Shown here piece after piece: positions 15,491-57,071 of a DNA stretch of 64,000 bases. The notes beneath the pieces were generated by a model. That model was given only the letters and a program-made list of their open reading frames with translations, made no database searches and had not been told where the DNA came from. Source of the DNA: Candidatus Uhrbacteria bacterium (lineage in GTDB: Bacteria; Patescibacteriota; Patescibacteriia; UBA9934; GWF2-40-263). Positions within the stretch are counted from its first letter, which is position 1, and each line of letters starts with the position of its first letter. The stretch lies in NCBI GenBank assembly GCA_016188475.1, contig JACPHT010000008.1, positions 34,489 through 98,488 of the forward strand, written 5' to 3'. Both the position numbers and the translations under genes were made by a program.

Positions 15491-15653
15491 GCGCTGGTAG
15501 CTCAGCGGTAGAGCAAGAGCCTTTTAAGCTCGTGGCCGTGGGTTCGATGCGCGAGCGAGCGAGGGGAGAGACCAAGCCAAATGCTTGGACTATCCCGAGC
15601 GAACGAACGCAATATGGCCGAGCCGTTTTAGGCGAGAGCCATATCCCCACCCA
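15491..15653 (+). pseudogene. Disrupted tRNA-Lys copy. Positions 1-58 (15491-15548) are followed by a ~95-bp GC-rich insertion, then an 11-nt T-arm/acceptor fragment atccccaccca (15643-15653). The 3' acceptor strand is missing.
   Basis: Positions 1-58 are identical to the intact tRNA-Lys 137 bp downstream. Seen directly. Confidence 0.6.
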
Positions 15654-15684: not shown

Positions 15685-15759
15685 GCGCTGGTAGCTCAGC
15701 GGTAGAGCAAGAGCCTTTTAAGCTCGTGGCCGTGGGTTCGATCCCCACCCAGCGCACCA
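15685..15759 (+). tRNA. tRNA-Lys (anticodon TTT)
   Basis: Acceptor gcgctgg/ccagcgc perfect. Anticodon loop cttttaa. T-loop ttcgatc. CCA encoded. Followed by a terminator hairpin aaaacactcaa-cttg-tttgagtgtttt. Confidence 0.85.
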
Positions 15760-39028: not shown

Positions 39029-39047
39029 AAAAATAGTCAATGAAGTC

Positions 39048-39230
39048 TATGGACACCACATTACGAAACCGCACTTAGAAGGATGAAAAATGAGTAAGAT
39101 ACGAAGTTTTGGAGCGTGGAAAAATTTGAGCCGTATCCATAGATACGGTGAGAAATTTTCCACGCGAAAAACAAGCAGATTACCATTTTTCATTCTTTAT
39201 GGAGTGCGGAGTCATAATGTGATGTCCATA
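39048..39230. repeat. ~185-bp element with ~45-bp imperfect terminal inverted repeats (tatggacaccacattacgaaaccgcacttagaaggatgaaaaatg / inverted) around a conserved structured core at 39103-39174
   Basis: Core shared with 46352-46425, with compensatory changes in two stems. Confidence 0.7.
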
Positions 39231-39279
39231 AGTAGTCAATGGAGTCAAGTAAGTAAAATGGGTAAATGAGGAAAACAAA

Positions 39280-39648
39280 TTATTTATACTTTGATAATTC
39301 AATCAGATGAGCGTTGATACCAGCCAGCAATCCGTTATATCTATAAGTCAGACGTTCCAATTCTTCAGAAGATAAATAATTTAATCTTGATGAAGTAAAT
39401 AAAAGGGATACCACTTCATGGATTGATCCTCGCGCGATTATATAGAAACGGATGAATTCCTTAATCCCACCCCTTCCCATACCCTCCGCGATATTTTATG
39501 GAACAGATACTGCTGCACGACGTATTTGTGAAGTTAATCCATATATTTCTTCTTTTGGAAAAGAAGAAGTTATATTGTACACCTCTTCAACCAAACTCTG
39601 TGCCTCATTCCAAGTTCGTAATTCATGAAACGATCTTATTTTTTCCAT
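39280..39648 (-). pseudogene. Four-helix-bundle protein (23S rRNA IVS protein family) with an in-frame TAA (39496-39498) where the family has a conserved Ser (AAVS(I/V)P-S-NIAEG)
   Basis: Translation MEKIRSFHELRTWNEAQSLVEEVYNITSSFPKEEIYGLTSQIRRAAVSVP*NIAEGMGRGGIKEFIRFYIIARGSIHEV... stays in the same frame across the stop. Confidence 0.5.
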
Positions 39649-45857: not shown

Positions 45858-46298
45858 ATGATTTATCTTCCTCTAATTTTAATTCCAGCGATCTTCGTCC
45901 TCTTCACTTTTCTAAAACCAAAAGTTAAAGGTATTGAATTGTGTGGGGTCTGCGCCGCTGTTAGCATCACTTGGCTGATTCTTTTGATTTCTGTTTTTGT
46001 TCTAATCGTTCCAGTTTCACCACTCCTCATCGGAATTCTAATGGGAATGAGCGTGATCGGCGGACTTTCAAAAGCAGAACCGTGGCTCAAAAAACAAAAT
46101 GTACAACATATTCCGCTTATAAAAATTATCGTGATACTCGGCGGACTTTATACTGTTTTGTTCTTGATTGAACAGCAATGGCGTTTGCTGATAATCACAA
46201 TTATAATTTCGATTTTCGCACTCATTATAATTACGCTTCTCATGCAAAAAAGATCGCATAGACATTTGGAAGGACAGAAACATTTAGATTGTTGTTAA
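45858..46298 (+). CDS. Membrane protein (4 TM), hypothetical
   Basis: Hydrophobic profile. Confidence 0.4.
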   Translation: MIYLPLILIPAIFVLFTFLKPKVKGIELCGVCAAVSITWLILLISVFVLIVPVSPLLIGILMGMSVIGGLSKAEPWLKKQNVQHIPLIKIIVILGGLYTVLFLIEQQWRLLIITIIISIFALIIITLLMQKRSHRHLEGQKHLDCC

Positions 46299-46475
46299 AA
46301 TAGACCCCACAAAAAACAGGATTTAGAAATAAGACAAAATTGCGCAAGACGCAGTTTTGGAGCATTGAAAAACCACAGCGGTATCCGTAGATACCGTGAG
46401 GATTTTTCAAGGTGAAAAACAAGTCCTGCACGATTTTGGCTGTTTATCGAGTCCTGTTTTTTGTGGGGTCTATTT
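46297..46475. repeat. ~180-nt element with 24-bp perfect terminal inverted repeats AAATAGACCCCACAAAAAACAGGA / TCCTGTTTTTTGTGGGGTCTATTT, carrying the same structured core as 39103-39174
   Basis: Seen directly. Confidence 0.75.
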
Positions 46476-46514
46476 AAAAAGTCGCTTGGCATTGAAACCA
46501 AGCGACCAGAGACA

Positions 46515-46763
46515 CTACGGACGATGAGTTCGCGAATCGTTTGACGAATCAGGAAGCGATCTGCTCCAATTGAGCATTAAGGTCATCGTCCCGAGGACAA
46601 AAGGCAACAGAAACGGGATATGTTTTCCGGACTCTCCGTAAAACAAATACCAGATGTCATATCCCAGAAACACGAGCGTGAACAGAGCCAGAATCCTTAC
46701 AACGATTTTCATCGTTCCTCCTTTCCGAAAACCAATCTTACTACTATTTTGAGATTTTGTCAA
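46515..46763 (-). CDS. Small membrane protein, hypothetical
   Basis: ORF with 2 TM. Confidence 0.3.
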   Translation of the reverse strand: MTKSQNSSKIGFRKGGTMKIVVRILALFTLVFLGYDIWYLFYGESGKHIPFLLPFVLGTMTLMLNWSRSLPDSSNDSRTHRP

Positions 46764-55330: not shown

Positions 55331-55538
55331 ATGAAATTACCGAAGAAATCGTACTCCGTTTACCAACTTTTTTCAAATGGAACAAACGTTATGAAACCGA
55401 ATTTAAGTCGCCGATGGTTTGACAATGTTGGTCATCTTGGAGCGAGAAATTTATGAAACGTAACCGTAGCTACGTTGAGTAAATTTCTTGGGAAAGATGG
55501 CCAATATTGGCAAATCCAGCAAGACTTGGAGTGCGGCT

Positions 55539-57071
55539 TCATAACGTTTGTTCCATAGGTTTGCCTTCTTCAAACCCAGACGAGGTTTGCACGCCAACAA
55601 CTACGTTTTGAAAAAACATTTCTAAATTTGAAACGCCAGAATAAGTGCACGCGCTTCGCAAACCAGCAGTGATTTCATCCAAAATATCTTCAGCACTTTC
55701 CTGTCCAGATTTCAAATACATTTTTGATTGACTCACACCTTCTTCAAAAAACGTTCGACGTGCGATTTCAAACGGATCCAATTGGCGACTTCGATCCAAC
55801 ACCGCGCGACTCGAAGCCATTCCAAATTGTTCCTTAAACAAATTTCCATCTGAATCGCGTTGAACATCGGCCGGGCTTTCAAATGTCCCAACAAACCAAG
55901 AGCCAAACATTGCGTGACTCGCGCCTGCCGCAAGCGCCAAAACAACGTCGCGGGGAGATCGAACACCTCCATCAGCCCAAACCTGTGCTCCGCGATTTCT
56001 AGCGATAGCTGACACTCGATGTACGGCAGAAAACTGAGGCCGGCCGACTCCTGTTGTCATGCGTGTTTTGCATGCGGCTCCAGGGCCAACTCCGACTTTC
56101 AAAATATTGGCGCCGGCTTCAATAAAATCATCAGCGGCAACGGCGGTTACGATATTTCCTGCGGCCAAAGGTTTGTCAGAACCCAAAATCGCGCGAGTCG
56201 TTCGAATCGCATCAAGCATTTGTTTTTGATGACCATGGGCCGTATCAAGAACAATCACATCAACTCCGATTTGAATCAACCGATCAACAGTATCTGCAAC
56301 GCGATCGCGAACACGCACAGCAACACACGTCATCAGTTCACTTTTTGTGTTCAAGGCAGGCTGATACATTGTCGCGCGAACTGCTCCTTTTCGCGTCATC
56401 ACCCCAGCAAGTGTGCCATCTGGATGAATTACAGGAACGATGGATAATCGACGCTCCGTAAGAAAATGAAAAATTTCTTTTGGTAACATCGTGCTTGAGA
56501 CGCTGATCAGTTGACGAGTCATTACGTCTCCAAGACGTGAATACCGATCGCGACGGTACGAATCCTTTTCAGTAAAAATTCCAACCGGACGATTGTTGTC
56601 GTCAGTAATAACAACAGCTTCATGCGAACGTTTGTGAATCAAGTTGAGCGCTGTTTGAACAGACTGATCTTCTTTCAATACAACAGGCGTTTCATAAACA
56701 TGATGACACTGCTTCACATATCGAACAATATCCTCGATTCGCTCAAATGGAATGTCTTGAGGTAACACGACTAGGCCGCCGCGACGCGTAACTGTTTCGG
56801 CCATGCGTTTACCGGCAACTGCTGTCATGTTTGAAACAACTATTGGAATTTTCGTTCCAAGATTTCCAACAGGAGTCAAATCAACATCCATTCGAGATTG
56901 AATTTCAGAATACAATGGCATTAAAAAAACGTCGTTATAAGTGAGCTCTTTTTGTTCATCTTCAGGTCGCAAGAATCGCATAGAACTCCAGCTTACAACA
57001 AGAATAAAAAAAGCGCATCCTTGTTTGAATGCGCAGTTAGAACTACTGGACAATGAGATGATCCGACTCAA
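55539..57071 (-). CDS. guaB: IMP dehydrogenase family (start probably MRFLRPED; N-terminal extension doubtful)
   Basis: GVGPGAACKTR catalytic loop. CBS pair. TIM barrel. Confidence 0.75.
   Translation of the reverse strand: MSRIISLSSSSNCAFKQGCAFFILVVSWSSMRFLRPEDEQKELTYNDVFLMPLYSEIQSRMDVDLTPVGNLGTKIPIVVSNMTAVAGKRMAETVTRRGGLVVLPQDIPFERIEDIVRYVKQCHHVYETPVVLKEDQSVQTALNLIHKRSHEAVVITDDNNRPVGIFTEKDSYRRDRYSRLGDVMTRQLISVSSTMLPKEIFHFLTERRLSIVPVIHPDGTLAGVMTRKGAVRATMYQPALNTKSELMTCVAVRVRDRVADTVDRLIQIGVDVIVLDTAHGHQKQMLDAIRTTRAILGSDKPLAAGNIVTAVAADDFIEAGANILKVGVGPGAACKTRMTTGVGRPQFSAVHRVSAIARNRGAQVWADGGVRSPRDVVLALAAGASHAMFGSWFVGTFESPADVQRDSDGNLFKEQFGMASSRAVLDRSRQLDPFEIARRTFFEEGVSQSKMYLKSGQESAEDILDEITAGLRSACTYSGVSNLEMFFQNVVVGVQTSSGFEEGKPMEQTL

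Follow-up and report, generated by a model that had tools for sequence, protein, structure and literature searches.

Is the 178-nt hairpin at positions 46298–46475 of this Candidatus Uhrbacteria DNA a mobile element, a structured RNA or an ordinary piece of intergenic DNA, and what do its perfectly matching ends tell about its history? The 64-kb stretch analysed here, hereafter the window, is bacterial chromosome with nine tRNA genes (ARAGORN), housekeeping genes and a G+C content of ~42%, and the closest named homologues of its proteins are from Candidatus Uhrbacteria (73% identity). Sequence comparisons indicate that the hairpin is very probably a miniature inverted-repeat transposable element (MITE), a non-autonomous DNA transposon, of the IS630-family type, and that it belongs to a family spread through the Patescibacteria (Candidate Phyla Radiation, CPR). 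It is referred to as copy B. Two other copies in the window are called A and C.

The original prediction placed a second copy of a structured-core element at 46297–46475, bounded by 24-bp perfect terminal inverted repeats (TIRs). Such a copy is present, and the coordinates were right to 1–2 nt. The arms AAATAGACCCCACAAAAAACAGGA (46298–46321) and TCCTGTTTTTTGTGGGGTCTATTT (46452–46475), 24 nt each, are exact complements, and the 24-nt repeat gives a BLAST self-match with E = 4e-8 in the 64-kb window. The region between TIR and core had been described as an imperfect palindrome, which agrees with our finding that the arms extend inward as a 56-nt imperfect palindrome of 79% complementarity (46295–46350 against 46423–46478). 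The 196-nt stretch with copy B folds into a single rod of −86.5 kcal/mol (z = −12 against dinucleotide shuffles, 0 of 200 being as good), and the opposite strand has a nearly equal fold (−81.3 kcal/mol). The core at 46353–46423 aligns to 39105–39175 of copy A, while identity between the full elements is 63%. Compensatory changes that maintain the helices had been claimed relative to a core at 39103–39174, and they were found: among the 76 pairs of the covariance model described below, 43 are identical in copies A and B, and pairing is kept through 16 two-sided and 3 one-sided changes.

Copies of this kind are widely distributed. A scan of one genome per species with the core pattern GTTTTGGAGC-N47-53-GAAAAACAAG returned 89 loci, and ~62 of these, in ~20 genome assemblies, were judged by their fold to be structured copies. 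The host labels are nearly all metagenome-assembled genomes (MAGs) of Patescibacteria, including Falkowbacteria, Uhrbacteria, Saccharibacteria, Yanofskybacteria, Portnoybacteria, Parcubacteria and ‘Patescibacteria group’. The richest are one Falkowbacteria MAG with at least 16 copies, one Uhrbacteria MAG with at least 15 and a third MAG with 10. Typical copies were also seen on short contigs labelled Gammaproteobacteria (L010, L055, L089) or Methanosarcinales (L052), and these contigs may be mis-binned. When the flanks are aligned, homology ends abruptly at T/ATRGACATCACAYTATGAAA … TTTCATARTGTGATGTCYAT/A (T/ATRGAC…GTCYAT/A, the slash marking the boundary), giving an element of 180 ± 3 nt (174–183 nt across copies) at unrelated loci. 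The element is non-coding, with a stop-free frame in at most 2 of 84 copies. A gene linked to the copies was sought by all-against-all clustering of the open reading frames (ORFs) within 3 kb, which yielded only housekeeping families and spurious ORFs over the element; the clusters near copies include EF-G, MraY-like, FtsW, L25, S2 and EF-Ts. Viral contigs, searched with the TIR and with two core patterns, yielded no copy, any matches being chance hits in coding sequence.

The origin of the ends could be traced by scanning metagenome contigs with the terminal 20-mer only, leaving the interior unconstrained. At least 120 loci were obtained, and among the matches listed there are 57 properly oriented TIR pairs. 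Forty-two of these are spaced 170–190 bp apart, with the same core in 41 of the 42; others are three internally deleted forms of 378–688 bp and three pairs 1.1 kb apart. One of the long elements (L139, 361–1480) reads TA/TAGACATCACACTATGAAAGTGAACT … AGTTCACTTTCATAGTGTGATGTCTA/TA around a 352-aa ORF that matches the NCBIfam model NF033545 ‘IS630 family transposase’ with 171.5 bits (cut-off 100) as well as the Pfam families DDE_3 (78.8 bits) and HTH_33. Five more loci (L104, L120, L127, L147, L154) encode transposase homologues of 50–86% identity, and TATAGACATCACAYTATGAAA… ends lie ~1.1 kb apart around a 351–352-aa ORF in L139, L104, L120, L216 and L219. A database search with the transposase gave 1413 relatives, mostly on contigs of ~1.1–2 kb; the named ones, annotated as ‘IS630 family transposase’, are from Candidatus Sungbacteria (74%) and Peregrinibacteria (61%). 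The same TIRs occur on a Sungbacteria contig (L216) and on a 16.8-kb JGI metagenome contig (L219), where the TIR runs on to …GAAAACGCAC exactly as in the 180-nt element. The insertion sequence and the 180-nt element have TIRs of ~28 bp in common and nothing beyond. Since the same TIRs flank a transposase ORF, the element in the window is assigned as a MITE whose ends are those of an insertion sequence of the IS630 family from CPR.

Other elements carry these ends too. Mini-elements of 56–146 bp with IS630-type TIRs and unrelated interiors were seen in L143, L146, L150, L121, L137, L163 (10540–10630), L191, L205 and L213, and longer TIR pairs in L173 (378 bp, with transposase gene fragments kept), L101 (452 bp) and L100 (688 bp). 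Because the mini-elements share their TIRs and not their interiors, the TIR family appears to have spawned several MITE lineages, of which the structured 180-nt one is by far the commonest.

The original prediction had further suggested mobility, and for the family this is upheld by the many dispersed copies, by the transposase-bearing parent with the same TIRs and by a site that is unoccupied in a relative. Synteny with the window at 36–49 kb (shared order copA, avd, dsbD-like, …, 403-aa, 147-aa, FGGY kinase, gpsA) is seen in the contig JACQXU010000055 (L094) of the Uhrbacteria MAG with at least 15 copies. On this contig nhmmer detected no family copy even at E ≤ 10, and the copA–avd spacer measures 66 nt, whereas that of the window has 252 nt, which equals ~70 nt and the element of 182 nt. 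As the spacer is shorter by about the length of the element, site A is seen as empty in the syntenic relative, a presence/absence polymorphism. Exact empty alleles were also sought among the fetched loci, where only a paralogous repeat matched (76–77%). Of 42 copies, 37 have a T directly before the element and 34 an A directly after it, the ends reading TA/T…A/TA. The look for target-site duplications that had been proposed for other copies gave this T…A/TA, as expected for IS630, and nothing longer beyond chance. Around the L012 copy there is a 6-nt repeat, which looks like insertion into a pre-existing short tandem or repeated sequence.

A transposase-bearing parent with the same TIRs, copies that are small, non-coding and dispersed, and presence/absence polymorphism are, at the level of sequence, the features of a MITE. 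By analogy with what IS630/Tc1-mariner elements are known to do, a transposase supplied from elsewhere would bind both TIRs, excise the element and paste it into a TA dinucleotide, which would be duplicated. The terminal stem of copy B would have been re-symmetrised, the copy now surviving as a long hairpin after a stop codon in a convergent intergenic region.

Several observations weigh against this interpretation. Neither the 64-kb window nor the genome-derived loci that surround copies contain a transposase gene, and any mobilisation would here have to be in trans. The syntenic relative, at ~73% protein identity, is too diverged for exact junctions, and its site B is taken up by another hairpin, of 140 nt, that resembles copy B in its outer stem (ATAGATCTCTGCAAAAGTC…) and differs in its interior. 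The T…A flank is expected from TA duplication, yet it looks the same as a TIR that includes the TA, and a search for a longer flanking duplication gave a longest common substring of 4.9, against 4.7 expected from shuffled flanks. Copy B itself is flanked by A…T and not by T…A. Finally, plain cut-and-paste transposition of a MITE gives no account of why an interior foreign to the insertion sequence is conserved, with covariation, over class-level CPR lineages.

Copy B follows immediately on a stop codon, is bordered by convergent genes and has long stable stems, as might be expected of an immobile intergenic hairpin of the host, either an elaborate bidirectional terminator or a REP/BIME-like repeat. 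We find this very improbable. The family consensus has no T-run after the stem, and a real terminator is found just outside copy B; copies are seen in all gene arrangements, upstream of copA among others, and their ends are those of a transposase-encoding insertion sequence. The shared TIRs and the empty site in the relative largely refute a host hairpin. REP/BIME elements in the strict sense (20–40-nt palindromes with 5′ GTAG, clustered, with Y1) were rejected, the present element being 180 nt long and single, with a DDE (IS630) transposase as partner.

An imperfect palindrome with conserved structure and extrahelical or unpaired bases is also reminiscent of the recombination sites that act as folded single strands, such as integron attC or those of the IS200/IS605/REP-RAYT type. 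We give this next to no credence, given that RYYYAAC/GTTRRRY core sites are absent (the ends are TATRGAC…GTCYATA), that there are no cassette arrays, the copies being single and dispersed, that genes for an integrase, Y1 or HUH do not recur near the copies, and that true TIRs are held in common with a DDE transposase element. With Rfam 15 no family reached its gathering threshold on the element, and in the window only tRNAs pass; the best sub-threshold matches on the element were MIR8562 (31.5 bits, threshold 211) and MIR1435 (23.1 bits, threshold 94). By these comparisons the family belongs neither to the attC sites nor to the REP elements nor to any Rfam family. Judged by eye, 6S RNA, signal recognition particle RNA, IS110 bridge RNA, association with diversity-generating retroelements (Avd) and likeness to CRISPR repeats were rejected, as the defining features or the associated gene were absent. 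The same applies to group II intron domain V (GAGCCGTAT…), and a hammerhead was rejected with GATGAG not being universal.

The perfect TIRs of copy B had been taken to suggest recent mobility or active maintenance. Comparison with its nearest relative, the Uhrbacteria copy L058 (87% identity), lends no support to the former, nor does the A…T flank, and active maintenance, through correction of one arm by the other or selection for pairing, fits better. The two copies have 21 differences in paired columns, of which 14 make up seven mirrored pairs, all in the terminal stem, where ~0.5 mirrored pairs are expected by chance on our rough estimate. In the left arm CA[CTATG]AAAC has become CA[AA]AAAC and in the right arm GTTT[CATAG]TGTG has become GTTT[TT]TGTG; a further mirrored change is T→C on the left and A→G on the right. 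The 3-nt deletion is found in no other copy among ~150, and the CTATG block lost here is a conserved part of both the family TIR and the TIRs of the IS630 parents. Between copy A and its nearest relative (94% identity) 6 paired positions differ, none of them mirrored. Because the mirrored changes delete conserved TIR bases, the arms of copy B are not considered a sign of recent transposition: they match each other and, presumably, no longer what the transposase recognises. The perfect arms point to re-symmetrisation, through hairpin-templated correction or recombination with a local hairpin, and not to fresh transposition; the local hairpin at site B of the relative is also without the CTATG block. 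Copy B is probably an immobilised relic that is no longer mobile.

The hairpin at site B of the relative (L094, 7778–7915) represents a second hairpin repeat family of this Uhrbacteria MAG, also present at L093 6912–7029 and L076 2541–2576. It is built on the perfect palindrome GTTTCAAATA..ATCCGGCCGGAT..TATTTGAAAC, and in L094 it lies within an outer stem resembling the unusual TIR of copy B.

The mirrored changes would also be accounted for if the hairpin were maintained at the level of DNA. Fold-back single-stranded DNA (ssDNA) would then aid transposition or result from it (end pairing, fold-back synthesis), hairpin-templated repair would correct the arms, and the ‘compensatory changes’ would be conversion events and not the outcome of selection on RNA. 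The seven changes in copy B, restricted to the terminal stem and with an identical deletion in both arms that is unique among the copies, favour such a mechanism, as do the lack of strand or orientation preference and the truncation of four Falkowbacteria copies at one and the same point, where stem P2 has its base, with L038 ending at the mirror point. However, correction of the arms should erase asymmetric internal loops, yet the loops are the most conserved part of the element. Transposition of IS630/Tc1-mariner elements is not known to depend on hairpins of single-stranded DNA, which counts against this explanation, and the changes in copy B could stem from recombination with a local hairpin, a similar outer stem being present at this site in the relative. 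On balance maintenance at the DNA level seems unlikely. In the four truncated Falkowbacteria copies (JACRNX01; L014, L016, L022, L028), which are independent of each other, the right arm is lost after CGGATCGCGATT, and the L038 copy is truncated on the left (AATCGATGAG…); the shared truncation points suggest that breaks occur preferentially where P2 has its base.

As a MITE the element is of a known kind, and what is unusual is its deeply conserved, covarying interior with almost invariant G·A loops. RNAalifold predicted 51 pairs from 46 copies, 33 of them with compensatory double changes. A covariance model, R1, has 186 positions and 76 pairs, and 84 genome and metagenome copies were aligned. 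In this alignment, which was fitted to the R1 model itself, 92% of the cells are paired; the figure falls to 77% for column shuffles and to 37–48% when the partners are slid. Double-sided changes are seen in 63 of the 76 pairs, and the covariation score is 0.44, against 0.17 for shuffled and 0.06–0.09 for slid partners. In an independent MAFFT alignment stem P3 takes the forms GTTTT/AAAAC, GTGTT/AACAC, GTCCT/AGGAC, GTCAT/ATGAC, GGGCT/AGCCC and ATCTT/AAGAT.

In the 36 copies ascertained by TIR alone, three internal loops are nearly invariant. Loop 1 has CUUAGAA opposite UAUGGAG in a layout like that of a kink-turn (K-turn), loop 2 has GGA opposite GA (conserved in 30–36 of 36) and loop 3 has (G/C)AG opposite YGAR. 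The consensus GCAC-UUA-GA-A… opposite …G-GA-GUGC would correspond to the C-stem, 3-nt bulge and G·A/A·G of a kink-turn, and the loops GGA/GA and AG/UGA are also similar to tandem sheared G·A pairs. At the K-turn positions the expected base is present in 36/36 copies for L3 (A), 27/36 for G1b, 28/36 for A2b, 26/36 for G2n, 32/36 for A1n and 32/36 for the closing G. G1b is replaced in whole subfamilies, being T, A or C in several of them, and the resemblance is to be taken as a lead only.

The ~125-nt interior is not derived from the insertion sequence, and is predicted to form a rod-like hairpin (P2–P5) with covarying stems and three purine-rich G·A-type loops. As an interior foreign to the insertion sequence has covarying stems and nearly invariant loops, it appears that a single-strand fold, as RNA or ssDNA, is under selection or continually restored across class-level CPR lineages.

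These properties raise the question whether the element might be a structured non-coding RNA in the first place. The ~125-nt core would then be a protein-binding module (for stability, RNase III processing or termination) or a small RNA, and the IS630 ends would merely spread it; this is compatible with its identity as a MITE and competes on the reason for the conservation. It would agree with covarying stems whose nearly invariant loops are purine-rich on one strand, and with R1 scores that are much higher on the GGAG strand than on the opposite one (178 vs 84 bits for copy A, 156 vs 65 for copy B). These are the strand-specific signals left, the score being about twofold on the strand with the purine-rich conserved loops. 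Conserved G·U pairs at ~six loop-flanking positions, the presence of the same core between other TIRs in L136 and the copies that often adjoin highly expressed housekeeping genes (EF-G, EF-Ts, S2, L25) point in the same direction. On the other hand, there is no Rfam family, only look-alikes to plant miRNA-precursor hairpins far below threshold. The first count of G·U against A·C pairs was 135:41; after near-identical copies were collapsed and the ~six special positions set aside it became 94:77, G·U being about as frequent as A·C. A bias towards antisense orientation relative to co-directional genes, 25:7 in the genome set, was gone once the metagenome copies were added (31:22, p = 0.27), and the association with GC skew is weak (38:24). 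The K-turn signature, too, is degenerate in several subfamilies. A primarily RNA-based element is in our view possible rather than probable. In L136 (821–898, minus strand) the family core, with GGAG loop, P4, apical GTAGC…GCTAC hairpin and GA loop, lies between different inverted repeats (GACTTTCCTCACATAG…) and has an extra G+C-rich hairpin inserted.

We tentatively consider that the interior of the MITE might be a functional folded module, consisting of the K-turn-like loop and two tandem G·A loops, which is carried through CPR lineages by IS630-type ends. If so, it could be a protein-binding RNA that alters the processing or stability of neighbouring transcripts, or an ssDNA fold that boosts its own transposition. 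This would explain why the 180-nt form makes up 41 of the 57 TIR pairs among the matches listed and why its length is constant, and the mirrored remodelling of copy B would reflect a mechanism that actively restores the hairpin. If the interior is inert, the element is an ordinary MITE.

The genomes of CPR/Patescibacteria are ~1 Mb and are thought to be poor in mobile elements, and to our knowledge almost no regulatory RNAs have been found in them. Here one MITE family reaches 10–16 or more copies per CPR genome and is present in many candidate phyla, and its IS630 parent has been traced. The R1 model can be used to mask or annotate repeats that break MAG assemblies and flags contigs that are possibly mis-binned, while the interior can be put to the test as a possible functional fold, of RNA or ssDNA, that is carried by a MITE. 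A literature search on CPR together with MITE or structured RNA found no description of CPR MITEs, which is not proof that none exists.

The family behaves like the ERIC, Correia/NEMIS or RUP elements of other bacteria. With IS630-family MITEs it shares ~28-bp TIRs in common with NF033545 transposase elements, a short, non-coding, multi-copy and intergenic nature and T…A flanks. It differs in that its hosts are CPR, in that its interior is unrelated to the insertion sequence yet conserved with covariation, and in that its length is held at 180–182 nt. A bacterial IS630 MITE is RUP of Streptococcus pneumoniae (IS630-Spn1). ERIC/IRU of Enterobacteriaceae and Vibrionaceae are intergenic imperfect palindromes of >100 nt with a wide host range. 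In ERIC the insertion is at TA, and compensatory changes have been interpreted as a sign that RNA folding is selected for. The CPR element is likewise an intergenic imperfect palindrome of >100 nt conserved over a wide host range, but it has a transposase-bearing parent and is not known to be related in sequence. Correia/NEMIS elements of Neisseria are MITEs of 100–155 nt with TIRs of ~26 bp beginning TATAG… and a TA duplication, and NEMIS hairpins in transcripts are RNase III substrates; no parent insertion sequence is known for them. Like the CPR element they are hairpin-forming MITEs, but they have another host and are not known to be related to it in sequence.

Table 1. Positions of the MITE copies, of the parts of copy B and of the adjoining terminator in the window.
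Feature	Position	Strand	Remarks
MITE copy A, 183 nt	39048..39230	+	TATGGAC…GTCCATA; R1 178.4 bits
MITE copy B, 178-nt hairpin	46298..46475	+	R1 155.8 bits on +, 64.9 on −; hit spans 46297–46476
Left TIR of copy B	46298..46321	+	Variant of family TIR: ATAGACCCCACA--AAAAAC vs consensus ATAGACCTCACACTATGAAAC
Left sub-terminal arm of copy B	46322..46352	+	Conserved TTTAGAAA loop (bulged side of K-turn-like motif) and variable P2 stem
Conserved core of copy B	46353..46423	+	P3 (GTTTT/AAAAC), GGA/GA loop, P4, AG/TGAG loop, apical hairpin
Apical hairpin of copy B core	46378–46397	+	GCGGTATC CGTA GATACCGT
Right sub-terminal arm of copy B	46424..46451	+	P2 3′ half and conserved TTTATCGAG loop
Right TIR of copy B	46452..46475	+	Perfect complement of left arm, with mirrored 3-nt deletion
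Intrinsic-terminator-like hairpin	46480..46507	−	Directly adjoining copy B, outside it and not part of the element
MITE copy C	55377..55556	+	Diverged subfamily, P3 = ATCTT/AAGAT; R1 92.9 bits, E ~1e-17

The TAA stop codon on which copy B begins is that of a 146-aa ORF for a membrane protein, and copy B is followed by the minus-strand terminator and the convergent FGGY kinase gene; an exact look-up of the 146-aa protein gave no record. Between the kinase gene and the terminator there is a possibly coding 82-aa ORF (46515–46763, minus strand) that matches nothing in Pfam. The syntenic contig preserves part of its DNA, with a called gene of 78 aa on the opposite strand.

Copy A is situated between the copA start codon and a truncated ORF for an Avd-like or ‘23S rRNA intervening sequence protein’ (39280–39480, minus strand, 66 aa, covering positions 51–105 of Pfam PF05635). 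The syntenic Uhrbacteria contig has an intact avd of 122 aa (PF05635/bAvd), with no reverse transcriptase nearby in either genome. Copy A is bordered by a 13/14-nt direct repeat, TAGTCAATGAAGTC (39034–39047) and TAGTCAATGGAGTC (39233–39246). Since the copA–avd spacer of the relative likewise consists of short tandem repeats (GTAAGTGGTAAGGGG…), this direct repeat is probably a pre-existing tandem sequence and not a long target duplication.

Copy C, the third in the window, was found with a profile that was built later. Its fold has −92.3 kcal/mol (z = −10.9), and it sits between guaB and tRNA-Trp; read on the minus strand, its right TIR forms the 3′ end of guaB/IMPDH (55539–57071), with the five final codons (MEQTL) and the TGA stop.

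The IS630-family copy in L219 (5953–7075) is full length and lies inside a type I restriction-modification locus, with hsdM and zeta-toxin genes on one side and hsdS on the other. Elsewhere in the window, a second tRNA-Lys(ttt) of 71 nt at 15492–15562 is called by ARAGORN and not by the Rfam tRNA model at its gathering score, and the neighbouring tRNA-Lys at 15685–15756 is reported by the Rfam model.

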